The position numbers and the translations under genes were made by a program. From Escherichia phage vB_EcoP_SU7: DNA of 64,000 nt. Each line of letters starts with the position of its first letter. The first letter of the stretch is position 1. Shown piece by piece: positions 906 through 30,426 of this stretch. The notes below the pieces were generated by a model. That model ran no database searches. It was not told where the DNA came from and saw only the letters and a list, made by a program, of their open reading frames with translations. The stretch lies in sequence record NC_070980.1. The stretch is one strand, 5' to 3'.

Positions 906-1551
906 TATGACAGGAACTAATACACTGAACGCAATCTATGAGAACATGGGATGTAAAGGCGAGGTTGTTTACAATGGTGGTCTCCGTCCTTTATCAGAGG
1001 ACACTTTCTATCTGAATCGTGTTCACGAAACTGCTGGAGGTAAATCCCGAGTTGAGATGGTAAAACAACTGGCTCATGGTTCTGTGTACGGTTATGCTCC
1101 TTCAACCCGTGAAATATGGGAAGGTTTGATTCCTCGTACAGAAGCTAAAGATGTGAAAGACTATTTCACTGTAGCAAAAGAAATTAAACGTAAGTGTCCA
1201 TCCAATTTAGAAGTTGTTCCGTATGTAGCTGACAAACATTCACACCTACCGGACTATGCCCGTGAGATGATTGAGATGATTGAAGAAGCCGAGTATGAAG
1301 CTCTGAATAATTATTTAAATTCAAAAGATCAATGGTCACGTAATGTAGTAATTGATGAAGAAGGTAATGAAGTAGTTACGTGGGTACATGCTAGTGAACA
1401 AGCTCTGGACCCCGAGCTTGAAGAATACAAAAAATTTTTGGCGTCCTCTTCTTTTGAGGTAGAGAATGACAAATCTATTCCAGTTGGCTGGGAAGGTGAA
1501 ACTGTAGCTCTCCAGACTTTGTTCAACCTACACGTAGGTGATGTAGATTAA
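895..1551 (+). CDS. Hypothetical protein
   Basis: 218-aa ORF with GAAGGAGAG SD; no recognisable motif. Confidence 0.5.
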   Translation: MMNNMTGTNTLNAIYENMGCKGEVVYNGGLRPLSEDTFYLNRVHETAGGKSRVEMVKQLAHGSVYGYAPSTREIWEGLIPRTEAKDVKDYFTVAKEIKRKCPSNLEVVPYVADKHSHLPDYAREMIEMIEEAEYEALNNYLNSKDQWSRNVVIDEEGNEVVTWVHASEQALDPELEEYKKFLASSSFEVENDKSIPVGWEGETVALQTLFNLHVGDVD

Positions 1552-1562
1552 TAAAAGGTGTT

Positions 1563-1586
1563 GCCTCCTCTCGTGGGAGGCTTTTT
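1563..1586 (+). terminator. Rho-independent terminator-like hairpin
   Basis: GCCTCCT/GGGAGGC stem followed by TTTTT directly after the 895-1551 ORF. Confidence 0.5.
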
Positions 1587-1616
1587 GTTATAACGATAAT
1601 GTAGAAGGAGTATAAG

Positions 1617-2084
1617 ATGTTTGGAGAAAAAGGAGAACTCACGCCTGCACAGGTAGCTGAGATTACAGGAAGACTGCCCGGAGTAACGGAAGAACTTGAA
1701 TCCAAGGGCATGGAACCAAGCACAGGGAGGTTCACTAAAGGTAATAAATTTGGACGTCCCAAAGGTAGTAGAGGTAAATTGACACAGCTCATGCTCGATC
1801 GTGTTGCTGCTAGTCATCTGTCTCCCGATGAAGTGTTGATTCAGATTTATGAAGATCCAAGTATTCCACCCGATCTTAGATTCAAGGCTGCAAGTAAAGT
1901 CGCTGATCTGGTATATCCTAAGGCAGCTTCTGTTGAGGTTAAGATTGAGGAAGAGAATGTAATCAATGAAGAATCACTGAACGCACAGATTCGAGACTTC
2001 TTGACTGGTGCACTGAAAGTGGATGTGCTACCTCCAGAGGACTCTGAGGACGCTGAAAAGGAGGAGGAAGCGGACGAGAGTTAA
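1617..2084 (+). CDS. Putative terminase small subunit / DNA-binding protein
   Basis: Immediately upstream of the large terminase; basic GRPKGSRGK segment and acidic C-terminus; AAGGAG SD. Assignment is by position. Confidence 0.4.
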   Translation: MFGEKGELTPAQVAEITGRLPGVTEELESKGMEPSTGRFTKGNKFGRPKGSRGKLTQLMLDRVAASHLSPDEVLIQIYEDPSIPPDLRFKAASKVADLVYPKAASVEVKIEEENVINEESLNAQIRDFLTGALKVDVLPPEDSEDAEKEEEADES

Positions 2085-2150
2085 TAGGAATAAAGGGGAG
2101 GGTTCTTTTCGCGAGGGATCTCTCCCTTTCTTATTTTATTGGAGGAATAT

Positions 2151-3692
2151 ATGTCGTTAGATAAAGAAATCTATGAAGCTCTAACTGGAGACAAGTTGAG
2201 TATAGAGGAAAAGAAAGCTTTGCTCAATATGTTAAAAGAAAGGGACCAGTGGAGAAAATATAACAAGATGTTGGCTTTTAAAGCCTACGACTTTCAGAAG
2301 AAATTCTATGCAGCAGGGTTGAAGCATCGCTTTCGATTCCTGTGCGCAGCTAACCGTGTTGGTAAATCTTACAGCGAGGCATACGAGTTTGCTTGTCATG
2401 TCACAGGTCGCTATCCAACTTGGTGGACAGGTTACAGATTTAATCGACCCATATTGGCTTGGGCAGTAGGGATTACAGGGGACTCTACAAGAAAGGTATT
2501 GCAAAAGGAGTTGTTTGGAACACCTATCGGAAAGGATATGAATCTAATAGGAACAGGTGTTATTCCTCGTGATGCTATCGTATTGGACACGATAGAACGA
2601 GATGGGAACAAATTACAGATTGTACAAATTAAGCATCAAAACGCGAGAGGCGAGTTTGACGGTCTAAGTACGCTGGAGTTCCGTTCTACCCAACAGGGTG
2701 AACATACATTGATGGGTGCTACGGTTGATTACATTTGGCTGGACGAAGAAGATCCATACGAATCTATGGCAATCTTCTCTCAGTGCGTAACACGTACACT
2801 TACAACTAAAGGTTTAGTTACTATTACAGCTACACCAGAGAACGGTTTAACAGAGCTGGTGGATAAGTTTATGAAAGGTGAAGGAGATGAGAACACAGGT
2901 TCTCTGTATTTCCAGAATGCTTCTTGGTGGGATGCTCATGTAGATTTAGGTGGACATATCACTGACCAAGATATTAAAGACATGACTGAAGGTATTCCAA
3001 CATGGCAGTTAGAGATGCGTTCAAAAGGTATGCCGTTGCTTGGTTCTGGTTTGATTTATGATGTATCAGATGACATGATTAAGTGTGATCCCTTTGAGAT
3101 ACCTGATACGTGGAAACGTGTTTGTGCTATTGATATTGGTATCGATCACCCGACAGCCGCTGTTTGGACAGCATATGATGCTAACACTGATACGATTTAT
3201 GTTTATGACTGCTATAAAGAAGGTGGGTTTACTCCGGTGTACCATGCACCAGCTATTAATGGTCGTGGTCAGTGGATTCCAGTTATTCTTCCTCACGATG
3301 CCGATAATATTGAGAAGGGAAGTGGTTCGTCTGTTGCTCAATTCTATAAGAATGCAGGGGTTAATGTACAGAGTGAGACCTTCTACAACAAGATTGGAAT
3401 GGATGGTAAGAAGAACTTCTTTGTAGAGCCGGGAATTACTGATATTCGTGAACGTATGATGTCAGGTCGTTTTAAAATCTTTAACATTGCTTCGTGTGCT
3501 AAACTCTTTGAAGAGAAAGCTCGCTATCACCGTAAGGTTGGCAAGATTGTTAAGGAACATGATGACTTGATGGATGCTATGCGATATTCAGCTTGTTCTG
3601 TAACACATCGTGGACGTAGTAAGCATGATGCTAGTTATGGTAGTTCATCGCTTTATCAAGACAATATTAACAGATGGAATCAGACCTACTAA
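2151..3692 (+). CDS. terL: Terminase large subunit (ATPase + nuclease)
   Basis: Walker A-like CAANRVGKS, Walker B-like IWLDEED, C-terminal acidic nuclease region; ATG at 2151 with GGAGGA SD (track ORF starts at upstream TTG 2139). Confidence 0.85.
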   Translation: MSLDKEIYEALTGDKLSIEEKKALLNMLKERDQWRKYNKMLAFKAYDFQKKFYAAGLKHRFRFLCAANRVGKSYSEAYEFACHVTGRYPTWWTGYRFNRPILAWAVGITGDSTRKVLQKELFGTPIGKDMNLIGTGVIPRDAIVLDTIERDGNKLQIVQIKHQNARGEFDGLSTLEFRSTQQGEHTLMGATVDYIWLDEEDPYESMAIFSQCVTRTLTTKGLVTITATPENGLTELVDKFMKGEGDENTGSLYFQNASWWDAHVDLGGHITDQDIKDMTEGIPTWQLEMRSKGMPLLGSGLIYDVSDDMIKCDPFEIPDTWKRVCAIDIGIDHPTAAVWTAYDANTDTIYVYDCYKEGGFTPVYHAPAINGRGQWIPVILPHDADNIEKGSGSSVAQFYKNAGVNVQSETFYNKIGMDGKKNFFVEPGITDIRERMMSGRFKIFNIASCAKLFEEKARYHRKVGKIVKEHDDLMDAMRYSACSVTHRGRSKHDASYGSSSLYQDNINRWNQTY

Positions 3693-3697
3693 AAATA

Positions 3698-3720
3698 GGG
3701 GAGGCTTTGTCCTCCCTTTA
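3698..3720 (+). terminator. Terminator-like hairpin
   Basis: GGGGAGG-CTTTGT-CCTCCC stem-loop after the terminase stop; weak T-run. Confidence 0.35.
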
Positions 3721-3757
3721 GTAGTTCCTTCCAAGCTATCACCGAGGGAGAGATTAG

Positions 3758-6001
3758 ATGGCTAAGAAGAAATTTAGTGAAGATGTTTTGGATGAATTAC
3801 GCGTTGACCTTCAACGTCGATTCAATTATGCTCAAGGTTATGTAGACTTAGCTGTAAAAGGCTATGCTCGTGAGGCTTGGGAATACTTCTATGGGAACCT
3901 TCCTGCTCCAGTTACTGCTGGTAGCTCTAGTTGGGTAGACCGTACGGTATGGGAATCAGTGAATGGTACGCTCCAAGATATCATTAATGTGTTCTGTTCT
4001 GGTGACGAAGCGGTAACTTTCGTAGCCGATAACCAAGAAGATAGTGATGCTGCTGACGTAGCCACTAAACTTGTCAACCAAATTTTGTTACGTGATAATC
4101 CGGGATACAATATTATCTCTTCAGCGGCACAAGAGTGTCTGGTTACACGTAACTCTTTTATTAAATATTATTGGGATGAACAAACTTCTACCCAAACAGA
4201 AGAAGCAGAGGGTGTTCCTCCGGAAGCTTTGGCTGCATATGTCCAAGGTTTAGAAGCTGGTGGGCTTCAAGATTTAGAAATCTTTACCACTGACAACGAA
4301 GATGGTACAGTGGATGTTAAAGTAACTTACAAACAAACAGTAAAACGCGTTAAAGTAGAATATGTTCCTTCAGAACAGATTTTTGTTGACGAACATGCTA
4401 CCTCTTTTGCAGATGCTCAGTATTTCTGTCATCGCACACGTAAATCTAAAGAAGATCTGGTTGCTATGGGCTTCCCTAAAGATGAAATTGAAGCTTTTAA
4501 TGACTGGACTGATACAATGGACACCACTCAATCTACTGTTGCATGGTCACGTACTGACTGGCGTCAGGATATAGATTCAGATATCGGTGTAGACACTGAT
4601 GATATCGCTTCTATGGTTTGGGTTTACGAGCATTACATCCGTACTGGTGTACTGGATAAGAATAAAGAAGCAAAACTCTATCAAGTTATTCAAGCAGGTG
4701 AGCATATTCTCAGTTGTGAAGAAGTAACTAGCATTCCTTTTGTAACATTCTGCCCTTATCCTATTCCGGGTTCATTCTATGGACAATCTGTTTATGATAT
4801 CACCAAAGATATTCAGGATTTGCGTACCGCTTTGGTTCGTGGTTATATCGATAACGTAAACAATGCTAACTATGGTCGTTATAAGGCTCTTGTAGGTGCT
4901 TATGACCGTCGTTCTCTACTGGATAACCGTCCGGGTGGTGTAGTAGAAATGGAGCGTCAGGATGCGATTGATCTCTTCCCATACCATAATCTACCTCAAG
5001 GTATCGATGGCTTGCTGGGAATGTCTGATGAGTTGAAAGAAACTCGTACTGGTGTTACTAAACTCGGTATGGGTATTAACCCTGATGTGTTTAAGAATGA
5101 TAACGCATATGCAACTGTTGGATTGATGATGAATGCTGCTCAGAACCGTCTCCGTATGGTCTGTCGTAACATTGCTCACAACGGTATGGTTGAATTGATG
5201 CGTGGTATTTATAATTTAGTCCGAGAAAATGGTGAGGTTCCTTTACAAGTACAAACCCCTCGTGGTATGGTTCAGGTTCATCCTAAACAACTGCCTGCTC
5301 GTCACAATCTACAAGTTGTTGTAGCTATCTCTCCTAGCGAGAAATCAGAACGTGCCCAGAAACTAATCAGCCTGAAGCAATTGATTGCTGCTGATGCTCA
5401 GTTAGCACCTCTGTTCACTCTGGAGCAAGATCGTTATATGACTGCACAGATCTTCGAGTTGATGGGAATTAAAGACACTCACAAATACTTAATGCCTCTG
5501 GAACAGTATCAACCGCCAGAACCTTCTCCGATGGAAATCCTCCAGCTTGAGATGACTAAAGCACAGGTTGAGAACGTACAGGCTTCTTCTCAGAAGATGA
5601 TTGCTGATGCATTCGACCAGCGTGAACGTACTACGTTTGAACAGCAGAAAGCTGCGGATGAGTTCAGCTTGCGTCAAGAAGAACTGCAATTTAAGCAAGA
5701 GAATGCTGCTGATCAGATGACTTTGGAGAATCGTAAAGAAGACAACAGTGCTACACTTGAACAAGCTAAGCATAAGTTGGCTCTGCTCCAGCAACAGGTC
5801 CGTCAGTACGAATCTGTACTTAAAGAATTGCAGATGACTCTTAACCATCAGGTTGATGTTGAGAAAGTTGCAAATCAGGCTAAAATTCAAGATAAGACTT
5901 TGGAACTCCAAAAGAAAGAAGCAAATGAAACTAAGAAAGAACAGCAAAGTTCAATCAAAGATTCACGGATTCCTAACCGTCGTCTTGGTAGTAGAAAATA
6001 A
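3758..6001 (+). CDS. Portal protein
   Basis: 747-aa ORF directly after the large terminase, strong SD, C-terminal coiled-coil/charged tail; assignment by position and size. Confidence 0.65.
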   Translation: MAKKKFSEDVLDELRVDLQRRFNYAQGYVDLAVKGYAREAWEYFYGNLPAPVTAGSSSWVDRTVWESVNGTLQDIINVFCSGDEAVTFVADNQEDSDAADVATKLVNQILLRDNPGYNIISSAAQECLVTRNSFIKYYWDEQTSTQTEEAEGVPPEALAAYVQGLEAGGLQDLEIFTTDNEDGTVDVKVTYKQTVKRVKVEYVPSEQIFVDEHATSFADAQYFCHRTRKSKEDLVAMGFPKDEIEAFNDWTDTMDTTQSTVAWSRTDWRQDIDSDIGVDTDDIASMVWVYEHYIRTGVLDKNKEAKLYQVIQAGEHILSCEEVTSIPFVTFCPYPIPGSFYGQSVYDITKDIQDLRTALVRGYIDNVNNANYGRYKALVGAYDRRSLLDNRPGGVVEMERQDAIDLFPYHNLPQGIDGLLGMSDELKETRTGVTKLGMGINPDVFKNDNAYATVGLMMNAAQNRLRMVCRNIAHNGMVELMRGIYNLVRENGEVPLQVQTPRGMVQVHPKQLPARHNLQVVVAISPSEKSERAQKLISLKQLIAADAQLAPLFTLEQDRYMTAQIFELMGIKDTHKYLMPLEQYQPPEPSPMEILQLEMTKAQVENVQASSQKMIADAFDQRERTTFEQQKAADEFSLRQEELQFKQENAADQMTLENRKEDNSATLEQAKHKLALLQQQVRQYESVLKELQMTLNHQVDVEKVANQAKIQDKTLELQKKEANETKKEQQSSIKDSRIPNRRLGSRK

Positions 6002-6010
6002 GGATACTGA

Positions 6011-6247
6011 ATGAATACAAGACAGCAATTCAATAAAGAGCACGCCGCCGCTTTGGCGGCTCTCAATCACAACGGCATTCTTGACGCAGCATTAGAGGCA
6101 TTAAAAGAAACCCTCATGAGAGATATCGTATTAACCGAGGCTCATGAGAATAAGAAACGCGAAGAGTGTTATCAAAAGTATAAAATGGTTGGTAGCTTAA
6201 AAGAGGTCATAAAAGCTGCTATCAATAATGCAGGAGATATTTCCTAA
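6011..6247 (+). CDS. Hypothetical small protein
   Basis: 78-aa ORF with AAGGA SD between portal and scaffold. Confidence 0.4.
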   Translation: MNTRQQFNKEHAAALAALNHNGILDAALEALKETLMRDIVLTEAHENKKREECYQKYKMVGSLKEVIKAAINNAGDIS

Positions 6248-7332
6248 TGGCAAATGATTATATTGACCCGAACGATTTTAAATCTTTCCTCCAACTAGAC
6301 GACTTAAAAGGCTCCTTCAAAGAAGAGCTTAGTCAATTAGAATCAGAACGTGAACCAGAAGTGAACATTGATGATGAATTCCCAGAACAGTCTGAGACTT
6401 TTGATCTTGATGCTTCCGACCTTCTCGGTGATGACGATACGTTAGCGTTCGAAGATGAAGATGGTTGGGAAGATCGTGAAGAGGAAGGCGAAGAAGAAGA
6501 AGAGGAAGAGTCTGAGTTCTCTGATGAAGAAGATGAAGAAGATGATTCCGGTGAAGCAGATCACGATGAAGCTGCTAACAGCGACGAAGATGGCGAAGAA
6601 GGTGAAGTCTTTGACGTAGATTATGAAACTGTTATCACCCTTCCTGATGGTCGTGAGATGACTATTGAAGAGTTGTCTAATGGCTATTTGACTGGTGCAG
6701 AAATGTCCGAACGTGAGACTACTTTGCAGCGTCATGTTGAAGCTTTTGAAGAACGTGTTGCTGGCTTGGGGGATGTATTAGAACTAGCTGCCCTAGAAGC
6801 AGACCGAGTAATTGAAGATTACAATGGTTTTGATTGGGACAAACTCGCACAAGAAGATCCTCAAGCTTATGTAGAAAACAAACGTTTCTTAGAAAAATAT
6901 ACAGCTCGTCGCCAACAGCTTGAACAAGCTCAGCTTAAGATCAAGCAGGAAGCACAAGCAAAAGAACAACAGCTCTTCCAAGCTAAATGCACTGAGTGTG
7001 TAAGCGTACTTAAACGTGAGATTCCTAATTGGGATGACAACTTGTATCAGAACCTGATGCAGTATGCAATCGACTTAGGTGCTACAGAAGAAGAAGTGCT
7101 GAAAGAGAACCGTCCGTCAATCTTCCTAGCTCTACACAAAGCATACCAGTTTGATAAAGGTAAGCAGCAGGTGATGGCTAAGATTAAACGTCCCGGCTCT
7201 CCACGCAAGGTTGTGAAGTCCGATGCTTCTAAGTCTCGTTCTTCCAATACGCCAGACAACGCTAAGGTTGCCAAGGCATTCTCAGAGGGTCGTATTCGTC
7301 ACGAAGACGCATTTAAGTATCTCGTAGATTAA
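6247..7332 (+). CDS. Scaffolding protein (putative)
   Basis: Extremely acidic N-terminal half (EEEEEEESEFSDEEDEEDD), helical C-terminal half, located between portal and capsid. Confidence 0.55.
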   Translation: MANDYIDPNDFKSFLQLDDLKGSFKEELSQLESEREPEVNIDDEFPEQSETFDLDASDLLGDDDTLAFEDEDGWEDREEEGEEEEEEESEFSDEEDEEDDSGEADHDEAANSDEDGEEGEVFDVDYETVITLPDGREMTIEELSNGYLTGAEMSERETTLQRHVEAFEERVAGLGDVLELAALEADRVIEDYNGFDWDKLAQEDPQAYVENKRFLEKYTARRQQLEQAQLKIKQEAQAKEQQLFQAKCTECVSVLKREIPNWDDNLYQNLMQYAIDLGATEEEVLKENRPSIFLALHKAYQFDKGKQQVMAKIKRPGSPRKVVKSDASKSRSSNTPDNAKVAKAFSEGRIRHEDAFKYLVD

Positions 7333-7372
7333 TCGACAAATTTATTTTTAATAGTATAGGAGCTAATATAAC

Positions 7373-8428
7373 ATGGCAAATCCAACTTTATTTGTATCTT
7401 ACGACCAGAATGGTAAAAAACTTTCTTTTGCTAACTGGATTTCTGTCCTGTCTCCGCAAGACACTCCGTTTGTGTCTATGACTGGTAAAGAGTCTATCAA
7501 TCAGACTATTTTCAGCTGGCAGACCGATGCTCTGGCGAGCGTAGATGCTAACAACGCCCACGTCGAAGGCTCTCGTGCTGAAGACGGCGAAATGAAACCG
7601 ACTGTAATCAAGTCCAACGTTACTCAGATCCTGCGTAAAGTTGTTCGTGTTTCTGATACTGCTAACACCACCGCTAACTACGGTCGTGGTCGTGAACTGA
7701 TGTATCAGCTGGAGAAGAAAGGTAAAGAGATTAAACGTGACCTCGAGAAAATCTTGCTGTCCGGTCAGGCTCGTACCGATATTCTGGCAGACCAGTATCT
7801 GACCAACTCTGCAACTGATCCTGCTGTTGTAGGTCAGAATGATACCTCAGCTGCTCGTAAGACTGGTGCTTTCCAGTTCCTGTGTGCACACAATGGTGTT
7901 GCTGGTGGTGTTGTTAAGAAAGAAGATGGTCCTGCTGACCCGGATACTGGTGCAGTAACTGTTAAAGTTGCACAGAATGCTTCTAACCCGACTACTAACA
8001 TCGGTTTTGATGAAGCTGATATCTTTGATATGACTCTGCAATTGTATACCGCTGGTTCTGAAGCAGACATCATCATGATTAACCCTGCTCACGCTAGTAT
8101 CTTTGCTAAGCTTCAGGAAAACTCTGTTGGTTCTCGTCAGCGTATCTTTGAGAACACCAAACAGTTCATCTATGAAGTTAACAGCATCACTGACCCGCTG
8201 GGCCAGAGCTATAAAATCATCGTTAACCGTTGGATGCCTGCTGATGCAGTTTACTTCTTCCGCAGCTCTGACTGGACTCAGATGGTTCTTCGTGCTCCGA
8301 AACGTACTGAACTGGCGAAAGATGGTTCTTACGAGAAATGGATGATCGAAATGGAAGTTGGTCTGCGTCACCGCAACCCGTATGCCTCCGGCGTTCTGTT
8401 CACTGCTGCGGGAAAGGTGGTGGCGTAA
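7373..8428 (+). CDS. Major capsid protein (zero-frame product)
   Basis: 351-aa ORF after scaffold with AGGAG SD, followed by a strong terminator; typical capsid position. Confidence 0.75.
   Translation: MANPTLFVSYDQNGKKLSFANWISVLSPQDTPFVSMTGKESINQTIFSWQTDALASVDANNAHVEGSRAEDGEMKPTVIKSNVTQILRKVVRVSDTANTTANYGRGRELMYQLEKKGKEIKRDLEKILLSGQARTDILADQYLTNSATDPAVVGQNDTSAARKTGAFQFLCAHNGVAGGVVKKEDGPADPDTGAVTVKVAQNASNPTTNIGFDEADIFDMTLQLYTAGSEADIIMINPAHASIFAKLQENSVGSRQRIFENTKQFIYEVNSITDPLGQSYKIIVNRWMPADAVYFFRSSDWTQMVLRAPKRTELAKDGSYEKWMIEMEVGLRHRNPYASGVLFTAAGKVVA
8410..8416 (+). promoter_or_regulatory. -1 programmed ribosomal frameshift slippery heptamer G GGA AAG
   Basis: X XXY YYZ heptamer 10 nt before the capsid stop; the -1 frame is open to 8952. 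A possible hairpin (8427-8432 pairing 8443-8448) lies 10 nt downstream. Confidence 0.55.
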
Positions 8429-8952
8429 CAGTAGACAGTGTGACTGTTAGCCCTGCGTCTTTAGCAAGTCTAGAGACAGGGGCTACTCGGCAGTTCACTG
8501 CAAGCGCGGAGAAAAGTGATGGTTCTACCGAAACAACTGGCTTTACTTGGTCAGTGACAGGAGGTGGTTCTATCACTCAGTCGGGTTTGTATACTGCTCC
8601 GAGTGCGTCTCAATCCACTGATGTATCCATTACTGCAACTTTAGAAGGTGTTTCTGGTACAGCAACAATTTCAGAAATTGTTGCTCCTGCTCCTACTATT
8701 GTAGCTAAGGGTCCAATTACGGGTAAAACTGGTGGTTCCTCCACTAATTTCACTACCATGTTTACTGTAACTAATTCTGCTGCTGCGGATTACACGTTTG
8801 TTGTAACTCCTACAGAAGCTGGTACAGTAAGCGCCGCTGGTGCGTTAACCTTAGATGCTGCTGCAAGTGGCGAAGTTACTGTTCAAGCAAGTTTGACAGC
8901 TGACCCGTCCATCAATGCAACATGCACTTTTACTGGTGTAACACCTGCTTAA
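8410..8952 (+). CDS. Capsid C-terminal extension made by -1 frameshift; contains an Ig-like (Big_2-type) domain
   Basis: -1 frame ORF (track 8338-8952) with no independent start/SD; Ig-like segment VTVSPASLASLETGATRQFTA...TATI. Confidence 0.55.
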   Translation, partial: GKGGGVTVDSVTVSPASLASLETGATRQFTASAEKSDGSTETTGFTWSVTGGGSITQSGLYTAPSASQSTDVSITATLEGVSGTATISEIVAPAPTIVAKGPITGKTGGSSTNFTTMFTVTNSAAADYTFVVTPTEAGTVSAAGALTLDAAASGEVTVQASLTADPSINATCTFTGVTPA

Positions 8953-8960
8953 AAACTAGA

Positions 8961-8990
8961 CCCTGCCTTCGGGCGGGGTTTTTTCGTTTT
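8961..8990 (+). terminator. Rho-independent terminator (UUCG tetraloop)
   Basis: CCCTGCC-TTCG-GGCGGGG stem-loop followed by TTTTTT, directly after the capsid/extension ORFs. Confidence 0.8.
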
Positions 8991-9054
8991 AAGACCTATA
9001 CAAGCTAGTGTGTAATGTATATTCTTTGTCTACATACAACTAGGAGGACAATCT

Positions 9055-9807
9055 ATGGCGATGCCAGACGTTCAAAACCCAATTAATACCTACGGATGGC
9101 TTAAGAAGGCTGTGTCCCTCTGGGCTGACCGTGATGACCCTGAATTTGTTAATCAAATTCCAAACTTTATTAACTTTGCAGAAAAGGAAATCTATCGTAA
9201 CTTACGTATTCCTCCTCTGGAAAAAGAAGTGTATTTAGATATTAAAGATGGAGTAGCTTACATTCCTCCTGATTACTTAGAAGCTCAATGGATGATGAGA
9301 GCCAAAGATGGCACAATCTTCCAAGTAACCTCTCCTGAAGAGATTAGCTATCGTAGACAGCATGGAACAATTAACCCATCTCACTGGAATAACCAACCTG
9401 TCAACTTTGCTCGTTTCGGTAGTCGTTTCATTTTCTACCCTAGCATCGAAGCAGATACTCCGTACTACCCTGATGATGGAAGCCCTTTGATTCCAGCAGA
9501 AAACTCAGTGATTCTTAGCTATTATGCAGACCCACCGGAATTCCATGAAGATACAGATACTAGTACTATTCTTACTATAGCACCGGAACTTCTTCTGTAC
9601 TTCACCCTACGTCATGCTTGTCTCTTTGTTCAAGATGATAATGGTGTTCAGAAATGGTCAGCATTAGGAAAAGCTATCCTTGATGAAATGGTAGAACAGA
9701 ATAAGAAACAAGAGTACTCAGGTTCACCTATCGCAATTCCGAATAACATGACTCGACTTCAGAGCAGCTTGCCTGATATTTATGGTATTCGTACTTCTCG
9801 TGTATAA
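9055..9807 (+). CDS. Virion structural protein (putative adaptor/tail protein)
   Basis: 250-aa ORF with AGGAGG SD after the capsid terminator; role by position only. Confidence 0.4.
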   Translation: MAMPDVQNPINTYGWLKKAVSLWADRDDPEFVNQIPNFINFAEKEIYRNLRIPPLEKEVYLDIKDGVAYIPPDYLEAQWMMRAKDGTIFQVTSPEEISYRRQHGTINPSHWNNQPVNFARFGSRFIFYPSIEADTPYYPDDGSPLIPAENSVILSYYADPPEFHEDTDTSTILTIAPELLLYFTLRHACLFVQDDNGVQKWSALGKAILDEMVEQNKKQEYSGSPIAIPNNMTRLQSSLPDIYGIRTSRV

Positions 9808-28900: not shown

Positions 28901-30426
28901 TGAAGGATGTGTGGGATGGGTTTATTAATACCTATAACCGAGAAGTTAACATGTTCAACAAGGCTAACAAGAATTCTCAATACGAAGCAGCAGCTAAACA
29001 CTTGCAAGCACGTCAAGAACGTCTTGAGACGCTCCGTAACAGAGCTAAAGCTCGCAGTGATGCTAAGGCAGCCATGGAGGCTGAGAAGCAGTCCTTGGAG
29101 GCTATAGCGGCTCAGAAATCCGAGATGGAGAAGATGTTCAAAGAGTTGCCTGAAAGTGTCAGAGAAGCTCAGGAAGGTCGTACTTTGAAGCAGCTTGCTG
29201 CTCACCACGATAAAAACTCTCCAGTACCACCAGAGCGTTTCCGTAGTATTATTGAACGTATTCACAACGCTGAGAGTGATTACCTCGATCGCAAACGTCG
29301 TTTGACCGAAGCAGAGGAAGATGCTCGTGAGGCTAAGTGGAACAGGATGTATGAACAGGCTGAGGAAATGAACCGTAGGTTTGATATTGATTCTAGAGTG
29401 AAGAGAGATAAGGCTCTGAAAGAAGCTCAGGAACGGGAGAATGACCTAATGGCAGTTCAACGTCAACGTGACGACATTCATAAGCGTTTAGTCAACACTC
29501 TGGAAGAGAAGGGGGTTTCTAGGGAGGATGCTGAAGCGTATGCTGGTTCTTATATGGACAATCGGTATGCTTTGTTAGAGAAACCTATGACTCCAGTGGA
29601 ACATCAGAATGCTCGTGCTCGTATCGAATCTGACGTAGAGAAGTTTGTTAAGAAGTATGAAACAGCTACTCCAATCGAAAGAGAGATTGCTAAGGCAACT
29701 GGTGATGCAGATGGGAAAGCTTCTGACCTTGATGCAGAAACAGCAAAAGCTATCGAAGATGCTCGTAAAGTTGATTCTGATTTTAAGAAACTTTTAGATG
29801 AAGAGAAAGAAATGGAGAAGATTCGTTCGGCTCTACCTGAGGATGAAAGATCTCAGGCTAACTCTGATATTCTTGAAAGTATTAAGAAGCAGGAAGATGA
29901 CTTTGCTAACAAAGCAGAGAAAGCTTTTATTGAAGGGAAAGACTTGCAGGAGTTGGCGAGTGTTGCAGAGGTTCTAGATAGGGTTCATGGTGCAGATAAG
30001 GCTGGTAACAACCGTCGATTTGTGCGTGCTCTACAGACTGCTGCTGAGAACAAGAAACGTTATGGAGATAATCCAGTGGCTTGGTTTAGTGCTGATGATT
30101 ATTCTGCTATTGCGAAACTTGGTGCTGCTTCGGCAGGTGGTAACAAATCTCGAGCACTTGAGAAGATCTTTGGTTCTACAGCAGAACAAGCTAAAGGGAA
30201 ACTTTTAGGGAGGGATGATGTAGCTAAGATTAGACGTGTGATTGAAGCGAATCCTAATGCTAAGATTCCTTCTTACAAGACAACTACTCGACAAGAGTAT
30301 TTACAGTTCTTGGAGAAGTATAATGACGAGGGAGAGTTGAAAGTCAAACGTGGTTCTCTGTCTGACAAGTTGGAGAGAAGTAAGCGTCAAGCTAAACTTC
30401 GTGTTAGAGTTCGAGCTAAGGAGTAA
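25981..30426 (+). CDS. Large internal virion/ejection protein (or tape-measure-like protein)
   Basis: 1481 aa, Ala/Glu/Lys/Arg-rich coiled coil with Gly-rich N-terminal segment; no tail tube/sheath genes recognised, so internal-protein role is favoured. Confidence 0.45.
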   Translation: MANLKSWEEASKAPAYLNASPEQQAQMREQYKAAGGTIPETQPQEQPQQEERGVIGEFAQGVSNALQSGGANIAASAAKGLGGLVEIGENLTGSETSYGKRIQENSKQLLEERLSKIGDGFGKTAGQYAGVAADIGLTVANPAVAAAVITARETGRAYADQTPKEDEDKSILDAALVGGANYAAQKILPGMTGTASTTLGRVGQSVASNAVAGAKGGAIVGAAEAQNKYGDDTTLANVLEGAIEEGALGAAYGGAIGGVHGLISRPSPQVFDRTPEHVKTDIAAEDEAIRKAANADELREAYAKAENANAASALNLLDENGFRITDAVAMDSPAVQRILNTDQSRAEKAATVQKDSSNVPGLNPLASPKKTQGKAFADNEYNQKQAVAMKDAMADYTKDNTKALTDVLDNLDRELVALRASGDFTGSAIDIKNRTQADRDFIDAYKTFYSEANRFKARDGEDLNNFIDKATQLQKLSENVSPEMKKAIGGLKKLKGMPEGFNPIQDAFTLNNTAKFMSNQDRGWTSLTDDGFREAPAPVLVKNPLGAAKYVLNRFTSDRARAQREKQQSANSEAIRSLARADLEVQRARTQAEEARAKMEEEPTTEDIKFRTQNDAPSEPVREEPSATTVTEEIPSSPAPTETPLTARDLVAQRRALQQAELRRQEAEAAQAQESTTPEPEPQQEALTARELVAQRRAVAEAKKRQEAEEAERAKEAPEKTVEEPQEKPEPLPARAPKAPEKAPEPVKPSLGVERLASMSTAARQATKDRADRFARSLYSAAAKAKATAENFLSYKGDPKELMRRIRQEDQANNTQRHEEMARNQLASQQGIASAKSQHVRSSFADWVKERGLPSDIATKALRAEEKGLGGNVTSLDSLKRRAERLYQKQRDDEFDRLYREALEENKAFDKKDAPKLVDQKKELQDEIGTLLDAEPLRPAQKDAMRRIMEDFVESKFKSSERAGRVEALEVGQMKDVWDGFINTYNREVNMFNKANKNSQYEAAAKHLQARQERLETLRNRAKARSDAKAAMEAEKQSLEAIAAQKSEMEKMFKELPESVREAQEGRTLKQLAAHHDKNSPVPPERFRSIIERIHNAESDYLDRKRRLTEAEEDAREAKWNRMYEQAEEMNRRFDIDSRVKRDKALKEAQERENDLMAVQRQRDDIHKRLVNTLEEKGVSREDAEAYAGSYMDNRYALLEKPMTPVEHQNARARIESDVEKFVKKYETATPIEREIAKATGDADGKASDLDAETAKAIEDARKVDSDFKKLLDEEKEMEKIRSALPEDERSQANSDILESIKKQEDDFANKAEKAFIEGKDLQELASVAEVLDRVHGADKAGNNRRFVRALQTAAENKKRYGDNPVAWFSADDYSAIAKLGAASAGGNKSRALEKIFGSTAEQAKGKLLGRDDVAKIRRVIEANPNAKIPSYKTTTRQEYLQFLEKYNDEGELKVKRGSLSDKLERSKRQAKLRVRVRAKE

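Follow-up and report, generated by a model that had tools for sequence, protein, structure and literature searches.

The window, a 64,000-nt stretch of DNA, comes from a Gordonclarkvirinae (Suseptimavirus) podophage that in nucleotide comparison is 99.5% identical over 1580 nt to Escherichia phage IME267. Its head module is ordered portal, small ORF, scaffold, capsid, extension, adaptor and fibre, as in IME267 (the comparison was limited to this module). The 3' end of the capsid gene, the extension and the sequence that follows contain these features:

7373-8428, + strand: major capsid protein gene, 0-frame short product (ATG at 7373, TAA at 8426-8428; 351 aa, 38.6 kDa, HK97 fold)
8410-8416, + strand: slippery heptamer G GGA AAG (X XXY YYZ type; capsid-frame codons GCG GGA AAG)
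8426-8428, + strand: TAA that ends the short capsid protein in the 0 frame, within the 5' arm of the downstream hairpin
8416-8952, + strand: -1 frame extension, 178 codons plus TAA at 8950-8952 (PHROG 13745 'Ig domain containing protein', E 9.9e-81)
8416-8439, + strand: linker GGGVTVDS in the -1 frame, 5' of any possible independent start
8431-8670, + strand: Ig-like domain 1 (Big_2-type), extension residues ~6-85 (Pfam Big_2 over residues 6-83; AF2 beta-sandwich strands E6-E85)
8695-8943, + strand: Ig-like domain 2, extension residues ~94-176 (AF2 strands E94-E176, pLDDT >95; weak Big_2, 16.8 bits)
8958-8991, + strand: intrinsic terminator after the extension (10-bp stem with 6 G-C pairs, T-run)

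The capsid gene product matches the Pfam family SU10_MCP (PF17236) with an E value of 2.6e-79 (267 bits against a cut-off of 24.1) and closely matches the SU10 major head protein chain 7z45_A in the PDB (E 1.4e-221). By tblastn, it is 94.5% identical to its counterpart in SU10.

An earlier note on this DNA had proposed that a -1 ribosomal frameshift near the capsid stop appends the extension to a fraction of capsid subunits. The heptamer on which this proposal depends is present at 8410-8416 and in register, with 9 nt between it and the capsid TAA, such that the stop begins 10 nt after it, as had been claimed. Bare GGGAAAG is found no more often than expected in the window (5 observed versus 7.7 expected), so the motif count is uninformative by itself and we used register and context instead. 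When the 52 in-frame X XXY YYZ sites in window ORFs of at least 100 aa were scanned, the sole stop-adjacent site with a continuing -1 frame was 8410-8416, beyond which the -1 frame runs on for 525 nt. The frame is open as the note had read it, but its length is 178 codons when counted from 8416 or 180 from 8410, rather than 181.

A tandem -1 slip at this site would give ...FTAAGK|GGGVTVDSVTV..., a product of 348 + 178 = 526 aa with a computed mass of 55.5 kDa that corresponds to a fused CDS of join(7373..8416, 8416..8952). The junction sequence of the fusion would be ...FTAAGKGGGVTV..., and a peptide across it would include ...TAAGKGGGVTVD...; the tryptic peptide GGGVTVDSVTVSPASLASLETGATR starts upstream of the GTG at 8440 and can be encoded solely by the shifted frame. 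The computed mass agrees with the ~55 kDa predicted beforehand and with the 55.4 kDa form described for SU10 (PMC4281155).

The extension had been described as a single Big_2-type Ig-like domain. Its Ig-like, Big_2-type content was borne out, in that the whole extension scores 24.8 bits against Big_2 (PF02368; E 2.2e-5) (gathering score 22.8). Taken singly, the two halves fall under this score (18.7 and 16.8 bits), so Big_2 membership is marginal by sequence. The number of domains had to be revised to two in tandem, since the AF2 model of the extension comprises two all-beta domains (pLDDT 96.7), and the best PDB match of this model in Foldseek is the tandem Big domains of LigA (8gyr_B, E 1.1e-10). 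The other top Foldseek matches are further tandem Ig-like domains, including Big_2-CBM56. A search for relatives of the extension returned just 25 proteins, and almost all of these come from this phage group. The set sufficed for a confident model; judged by this search, the module is narrow in distribution.

Most records present the extension differently. GenBank and RefSeq entries start it at the in-frame GTG at 8440 and annotate it as a gene of its own (IME267 gp010, phiEco32 gp12), in which case the 'Ig domain containing protein' would be a free chain of 170 aa that perhaps decorates the capsid non-covalently. The authors of the SU10 cryo-EM study also considered that gp10 might be a minor capsid protein in its own right, maybe lost in purification (PMC9509320). 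We regard an independent gene as very improbable, because no SD was found within the 20 nt upstream of GTG 8440 and this position is GTA or ATA in 4 of 7 distinct relatives (EP335, L015, L016 and L017). The starts chosen by database gene callers are also inconsistent, lying at no fewer than three differing internal positions, some of which cut the Ig fold. The 24 nt 5' of GTG 8440 instead evolve as -1-frame coding sequence: linker substitutions among relatives fall mostly at -1-frame third positions, while the 0-frame residues change (VVA, VAA, AAA, AGA), and the 3-nt insertion after the heptamer in EP335 and L015 preserves the frame. The linker reads GGG in the window and GSGG or GGS in relatives. 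Also against an independent gene, the heptamer is invariant between genera, and phage Privateer has no comparable start, its fusion having been found by mass spectrometry (PMC7881722). The ATG at 8338, which opens the mechanical ORF and the coordinates given in the earlier note, lies inside the capsid gene, lacks an SD and was taken as incidental. Thus, the earlier statement that the extension has neither a start codon nor an SD was right about the SD but not strictly so about start codons, since GTG 8440 and ATG 8338 both exist; neither makes a credible initiation site for the -1 frame.

GGGAAAG occurs in the same register in phiEco32, IME267, ShigP1, YW01, EP335, SU10 and five IMG/VR contigs. 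All 12 Gordonclarkvirinae loci compared have it unchanged, and so do Privateer and vB_CsaP_009, with capsid proteins that share just 58% identity with that of the window; the genera that keep both the heptamer and the frame relation are Kuravirus, Suseptimavirus, Nieuwekanaalvirus and Privateervirus. The extension that follows the heptamer differs among relatives in sequence and in length (169, 178-180 and 372 codons), with the longer extensions of YF01 and EP335 giving 892-aa and 725-aa fusions. The colinear stretch of capsid gene and extension is found in 78 phage records.

This conservation bears on whether the two reading frames were separated by accident, either through a frameshift mutation or sequencing error in a formerly in-frame capsid-Ig gene or because the extension is an unexpressed, decaying remnant. 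In-frame arrangements do exist, in that relatives such as phage 7-11 encode a second copy of the capsid protein that is lengthened in frame at its C-terminus (gp009, 585 aa), and SU10 is an example of loss of the extension through an indel. Nevertheless, the two frames stand in the identical -1 relation at this heptamer in all 12 Gordonclarkvirinae loci examined and in two Privateervirus genomes, 78 records contain the colinear stretch, and the extension has no stops over its 178 codons and folds with very high confidence into two domains. Furthermore, the solved SU10 capsid is built of the short 352-aa form, so an all-fused capsid is not the ancestral state in the group. We therefore consider an accidental split highly improbable, even more so than an independent gene.

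Composition changes at the slip site. GC3 drops from 0.44 to 0.26, and from one side to the other CTG goes from 14/21 to 0/7 of Leu codons and ACA from 0/26 to 11/36 of Thr codons, a shift in codon bias that fits a low-level product. The first terminator stands only 3' of the extension (8958-8991), and the annotations of SU10 and Privateer include an equivalent one. Thus, the capsid gene and the extension appear to share one transcription unit.

The same fused protein would result if RNA polymerase, rather than the ribosome, stuttered at the heptamer, although none of our results favours this route. Transcriptional slippage in bacteria requires homopolymer runs of ~7-9 or more, and the longest runs at this site are GGG and AAA. 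The site also follows the X XXY YYZ rule for ribosomal slippage exactly and is identical to that of lambda G/GT. Because a long homopolymer run is absent, we rejected transcriptional slippage, which we hold to be the least probable of these alternatives.

Frameshift sites of the X XXY YYZ type usually, though not obligatorily, have a stimulatory RNA structure 5-9 nt downstream. Two RNA structures that compete for ACUGUUAGCC can be drawn 3' of the heptamer:

8422-8452, + strand: candidate stimulatory hairpin GGC-g-UAACAGU, 10-nt loop, ACUGUUA-GCC, 5 nt 3' of the heptamer
8436-8500, + strand: alternative, larger stem-loop that begins 19 nt after the heptamer

The possible hairpin mentioned in the earlier note does exist at 8422-8452, but at -10 kcal/mol (z -1.4) it is no stronger than shuffled sequence. 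Among 7 distinct relatives the loop of this hairpin differs but the arms of its 7-bp core do not, so that they provide no covariation evidence. Privateer and the uncultivated contig L019 have unrelated hairpins spaced 6-7 nt from their sites, and this recurrence of unrelated hairpins at a like spacing is suggestive. The larger stem-loop has a minimum free energy of -33.9 kcal/mol (z -2.6), and across 7 sequences 91% of cells are paired, with 3 pairs changed on both sides. We rejected it as the main stimulator given its distance of 19 nt from the site and the small number of related sequences (just 7). A further structure, a stem-loop holding the heptamer in its loop (CUGCUGC/GUGGUGG), was proposed in the SU10 paper (PMC4281155). 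In the window this stem has a free energy of -7.6 kcal/mol (z -0.6) and was set aside as weak and misplaced for a stimulator.

Frameshifting in the capsid gene is already known in this phage group, where the mechanism has been published. For phiEco32, it was reportedly described in 2008 (Savalia 2008). For SU10, mass spectrometry in 2014 led to the report of gp9 at 38.5 kDa and gp9+10 at 55.4 kDa (PMC4281155), and GGGAAAG is named as the slip site in PMC9965538, PMC4281155 and PMC7881722. A 2023 description states the mechanism for the group as a whole (PMC9965538). The phiEco32-like phages (phiEco32 gp11/gp12, SU10 gp9/gp10, YF01 gp8) resemble the window in gene, with capsid proteins 94-95% identical, and they share the GGGAAAG site, its placement with respect to the stop and the two-domain Ig-like extension without a difference in mechanism; the reported sizes of 38.5 and 55.4 kDa compare with 38.6 and 55.5 kDa computed for the window. 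The window differs from them in belonging to the Suseptimavirus branch and in its GGG linker, whereas YF01 and EP335 have the longer extensions and the SU10 deposit is truncated. Thus, the reading of the locus as a programmed -1 frameshift is upheld both by literature that names the same site and by our comparative evidence.

The deposited SU10 sequence carries a 1-nt insertion that ends the -1 frame after 11 codons, so the 2014 report of a 55.4 kDa form is hard to square with it. Density for the extension is absent from the SU10 cryo-EM capsid, and a long band was not observed on SDS-PAGE (PMC9509320, PMC9965538). However, both observations have to be read with the insertion in the deposit in mind.

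Proteus phage Privateer (Grimontviridae) resembles the window in having a GGGAAAG -1 shift at the 3' end of its capsid gene and a terminator after the extension, and its record annotates the capsid fusion as a joined CDS. According to the 2021 report, Privateer virions contain two capsid bands, the minor form having been identified by mass spectrometry (PMC7881722). Its heptamer abuts the stop, with a gap of 0 nt compared to 9 nt in the window, and in the alignment of slip sites neither its 169-codon extension nor its hairpin aligned with the counterpart in the window.

More distant systems share the strategy. T7 and T3 (10A/10B) are podophages in which a -1 shift at the end of the capsid gene yields a minor extended subunit in heads. 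Their capsid proteins belong to different Pfam families from that of the window, and they are analogues in mechanism rather than members of the same family. The T7 slip site is G GUU UUC, and its 10B extension of ~53 residues is not known to contain a recognised domain. Frameshifting in the T7 and T3 capsid genes is ~10% efficient, and the T3 extension contributes an Ig-like domain (PMC9965538).

Lambda G/GT, whose host is also E. coli, uses the identical G GGA AAG but differs in gene, function and product, being a tail chaperone rather than a structural decoration. At G/GT, downstream structure is not known to be required. The efficiency of the lambda shift is ~3.5% (PMC9965538). Virion proteins that gain a C-terminal Big_2-type Ig-like domain through a programmed frameshift were described as a general class by Fraser et al. 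2006 (J Mol Biol 359:496), as relayed in PMC9965538, which gives the proposed role of the domains as accessory surface adhesion; the window represents one lineage already listed in this class.

Taken together, these data make it very probable that the 3' end of the major capsid gene holds a site of programmed -1 ribosomal frameshifting. The existence of two protein forms is carried over from the literature on close relatives of this phage and would hold here by analogy. Most ribosomes would stay in frame through GCG GGA AAG GUG GUG GCG UAA, ending the HK97-fold capsid protein at 351 aa. In a minority, the P-site tRNA-Gly would re-pair from GGA to GGG and the A-site tRNA-Lys from AAG to AAA, and the shifted ribosomes would then read GGU GGU GGC GUA... 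for 178 codons more. The 526-aa product would consist of the capsid protein, a short Gly-rich linker and, at its C-terminus, two tandem Big_2-type Ig-like domains. The modest hairpin that starts 5 nt after the heptamer and takes in the 0-frame stop may raise the efficiency of the shift. The long form would be built into the prolate head alongside the short one, as a minor component, probably displaying its Ig-like domains on the surface, where their likely role would be weak adhesion to carbohydrates of cells or mucus. Combining the SU10 capsid count with the lambda efficiency, both from the literature, we estimate a few tens of long-form copies.

Other arrangements in the same capsid lineage could lead to a similar subunit. 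The uncultivated contigs L019-L021 have no X XXY YYZ site in the last 150 nt; they have G GUA AAG, followed 7 nt 3' by a much stronger GC hairpin and by a -1 extension of ~187 aa. If G GUA AAG truly shifts, it would be a natural example of a weak slip site offset by a strong stimulator. In 7-11, GAP52, ECO319P1 and APT65, the capsid gene is duplicated in tandem and one paralogue is fused in frame to an extension, as in the 585-aa gp009 of Salmonella phage 7-11. It is conceivable, and we suggest it only tentatively, that this lineage makes a minor Ig-decorated subunit by interchangeable routes, namely the canonical heptamer, G GUA AAG and gene duplication.

The main value of these findings lies in annotation, since most public records, including RefSeq phiEco32 and IME267, list the extension separately as an 'Ig domain containing protein' and give it an arbitrary start codon, GTG or ATG. 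A joined CDS, join(7373..8416, 8416..8952), is better supported by the evidence than a separate gene. Implications for adhesion and display also follow, none of which is new in principle. The capsid C-terminus seemingly tolerates additions of 169 to ~540 residues and might serve for display. The long form would put Ig-like adhesion domains on the prolate head, and such decoration could affect the adherence to hosts or mucus of phages in use against pathogenic E. coli.

The proposed frameshift feature lies within a podophage head module.

Head module and adjoining genes
3758-6001, portal ORF
Between the portal and scaffold genes, small ORF
6247-7332, acidic scaffold protein ORF
7373-8428, major capsid gene (351 aa; Pfam SU10_MCP, E 2.6e-79)
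9055-9807, adaptor, matching Pfam SU10_adaptor
3' of the adaptor, tail fibre ORF

Across 7373-8952, Escherichia phage IME267 (Gordonclarkvirinae, Suseptimavirus) matches the window at 99.5% identity and many Kuravirus genomes do so at ~94%. The window capsid protein is a close match to the SU10 major head protein (PDB 7z45; E 1.4e-221; 94.5% identity), for which a capsid structure has been solved. In IME267, an HNH endonuclease gene (5683-6195 of its locus) separates the capsid extension from the adaptor gene; the counterpart interval in the window, 8953-9054, holds a terminator and a Shine-Dalgarno (SD) sequence only, with no homing-type insertion.

The capsid gene ends in GCU GCG GGA AAG GUG GUG GCG UAA, which places GGGAAAG (8410-8416) in X XXY YYZ register with a 9 nt gap to the TAA at 8426-8428; sequence and register thus agree with the slippery heptamer that the earlier note had proposed in the capsid frame. 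From 8416, the -1 frame reads GGU GGU GGC GUA ACA GUA GAC and stays open past the capsid stop as claimed, although for 178 sense codons, ending at TAA 8950-8952, rather than the slightly high 181; the other features are found at the coordinates given in the earlier note. A tandem -1 slip would join FTAAGK to GGGVTVDSVTV, and the computed fusion, join(7373..8416, 8416..8952), has 348 + 178 = 526 aa and a mass of 55.5 kDa, compared to 38.6 kDa for the short form. Since the bare heptamer was not enriched in the window (5 copies against 7.7 expected), register and context were surveyed instead: ORFs of 100 aa or more contain 52 in-frame X XXY YYZ heptamers, and each was inspected. The heptamer at 8410-8416 was the sole stop-adjoining one with a continuing -1 frame, a run of 525 nt. 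Two other cases fell 192-327 nt from the stop of a short ORF (3085-3426) that presumably overlaps a real gene in another frame. None of the four remaining GGGAAAG copies, at 29713, 29935 and 42250 (+) and 33203 (-), was found to be in X XXY YYZ register with an ORF of that length.

Most GenBank and RefSeq records instead annotate the extension as a separate gene, an "Ig domain containing protein" whose start is placed at the GTG equivalent to window position 8440. This in-frame GTG means that a start codon is not lacking, as had been supposed, yet several results speak against a separate gene. The 20 nt 5' of the GTG are indeed devoid of an SD-like sequence, and four of the seven distinct relatives aligned (EP335 and the loci L015, L016 and L017) have GTA or ATA at this codon. 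The 24 nt from the heptamer to 8440 also behave as -1-frame coding sequence in the relatives: linker differences (GGT/GGC/GGG, GTA/GTT, GAC/GAT) are synonymous when read in the -1 frame but alter the 0-frame capsid tail (VVA, VAA, AAA, AGA), and a 3-nt insertion in EP335 and L015 adds one Ser codon while preserving the frame. Starts of the extension ORF are called at at least three different places in a large protein collection, some of them within the first beta-sandwich; the ATG used in many relatives is missing from the window. The heptamer is invariant and in register across all Gordonclarkvirinae loci examined (Kuravirus, Suseptimavirus, Nieuwekanaalvirus and five IMG/VR contigs). GGGAAAG also occurs, directly abutting the stop codon, in two phages with a capsid protein identity of only 58%, Proteus phage Privateer and Cronobacter phage vB_CsaP_009. 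Over this whole set, extensions have 169, 178-180 or 372 codons. Scanning 7000-9400 revealed a single terminator-like site, 8958-8981 with a T-run, 3' of the extension.

Codon usage changes sharply across the slip site. The capsid gene (7373-8425) has a GC3 of 0.44, with Leu CTG 14/21, Arg CGT 14/16 and Thr ACA 0/26, while the extension (8416-8949) has a GC3 of 0.26, Leu CTG 0/7 and Thr ACA 11/36. The capsid gene favours E. coli-preferred codons; the extension resembles the portal, scaffold, adaptor and fibre genes, the other four structural genes in the comparison. Such a change is consistent with heavy translation of the capsid gene and with few ribosomes reading on into the segment after it.

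Pfam Big_2 matched the whole extension at 24.8 bits (gathering score 22.8), and its separate halves at 18.7 and 16.8 bits, both below threshold. An AlphaFold2 model built from 22 aligned sequences (mean pLDDT 96.7) comprised two all-beta domains, at extension residues ~6-85 and 94-176, whose top PDB match was a two-domain segment of the Leptospira tandem Big-domain adhesin LigA (8gyr, E 1.1e-10). Lower matches were other tandem Ig-like domains, including Big_2-CBM56 and the SU10 tail Ig-like nozzle domains. The extension is thus real protein sequence with, as modelled, two tandem Ig-like domains; its Ig-like content was read correctly in the earlier note, but not as a single domain. The extension is modular: EP335 (4053-5177 of its locus) has 372 -1 codons, the database protein P0003 has an additional Big_2 domain between the two found here, proteins P0008-P0010 add a third domain C-terminally, and up to ~540 additional residues are described for YF01 (PMC9965538).

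The suggested hairpin after the slip site is present at 8422-8452, 5 nt past the heptamer (GGC-g-UAACAGU, 10-nt loop, ACUGUUA-GCC; -10 kcal/mol), with the 0-frame UAA inside it, but it is no stronger than shuffled sequence (z -1.4). Its 7-bp core is unchanged in seven relatives, which show no covariation there; unchanging arms around a variable loop hint at constraint. An unrelated hairpin lies 6 nt past the Privateer heptamer (-10.8 kcal/mol, z -1.8), and the L019 group of uncultivated IMG/VR contigs has a strong one 7 nt 3' of the equivalent site. This shared position is the best argument for a contribution of downstream structure. A larger stem-loop at 8436-8500 (z -2.6) begins 19 nt 3' of the heptamer and competes with the hairpin for its 3' arm; among only seven related sequences, it shows a few pairs changed on both sides. 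The stem proposed in the SU10 paper, which has the heptamer in its loop, is weak in the window (z -0.6).

In those contigs (L019 3912-3985 and the same region of L020 and L021), the capsid protein is 66% identical and a ~187-aa -1 frame extension, starting GVSAPTGVTVSPA, follows the capsid gene. The last 150 nt contain no X XXY YYZ heptamer, and the site that corresponds in position reads G GUA AAG, 3 nt 5' of the stop, with a strong GC hairpin (GCGCCC-CUAC-GGGCGU) 7 nt downstream (67-nt fold, z -4.8). G GUA AAG may be a non-canonical slip site for which a stronger stimulator compensates. In four other relatives, the 3' end of the capsid gene lacks a slippery heptamer and there are instead two or three capsid paralogues in tandem, of which one has an in-frame C-terminal extension (585 aa for gp009 of 7-11 vs 312 aa for gp008).

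Tandem capsid paralogues, by position in each locus
Salmonella phage 7-11, 1982-4758
GAP52, 2992-5129
ECO319P1, 2992-5096
APT65, 1069-3927

With this arrangement, a minor extended capsid subunit would be reached by another genetic route.

The programmed -1 frameshift reading is confirmed as an observation and supported as an interpretation, but the feature is already published. The SU10 genome paper describes potential ribosomal slippage at GGGAAAG fusing the head protein to an Ig-like domain, as in phiEco32; in its mass-spectrometry table, gp9 appears at 38.5 kDa and gp9+10 at 55.4 kDa (PMC4281155). The Privateer paper reports the same slip signal, two capsid bands and a minor form detected by mass spectrometry, and says that phiEco32 and SU10 had also been observed to make the frameshifted product (PMC7881722). 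Short and -1 extended capsid isoforms in "YF01 and other group phages" are described in a 2023 paper on Kuravirus-like phages, the extended ones typically ~500-550 aa with an Ig-like domain (PMC9965538). The present sequence analysis shows the site with its register and open frame, the fold of the extension and a conserved arrangement; that two capsid protein forms exist comes from literature on close relatives. However, the SU10 cryo-EM capsid had neither extension density nor a long band (PMC9509320). The SU10 deposit (KM044272, 4048-4082 of its locus) has a 1-nt insertion 24 nt past the heptamer, and the -1 frame therefore closes after 11 codons, which explains the cryo-EM result. The insertion, which makes the hairpin region a near-perfect palindrome, sits oddly with the 55.4 kDa form of 2014; it may be a genuine mutation or an error in sequencing.

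The heptamer is the same as that of lambda G/GT, where frameshift efficiency is quoted as ~3.5% (PMC9965538). A few percent of ribosomes would shift -1, and the long form would co-assemble into the prolate head; with the 715 capsid subunits of SU10 (PMC9509320), this would give a few tens of long-form copies. By analogy with the weak carbohydrate adhesion generally proposed for phage Ig-like domains (Fraser 2006, as cited in PMC9965538), the C-terminal domains may face outward and adhere weakly to carbohydrate. The Privateer GenBank record already gives the capsid as a joined CDS, and the value left in the capsid-extension finding is annotation correction.
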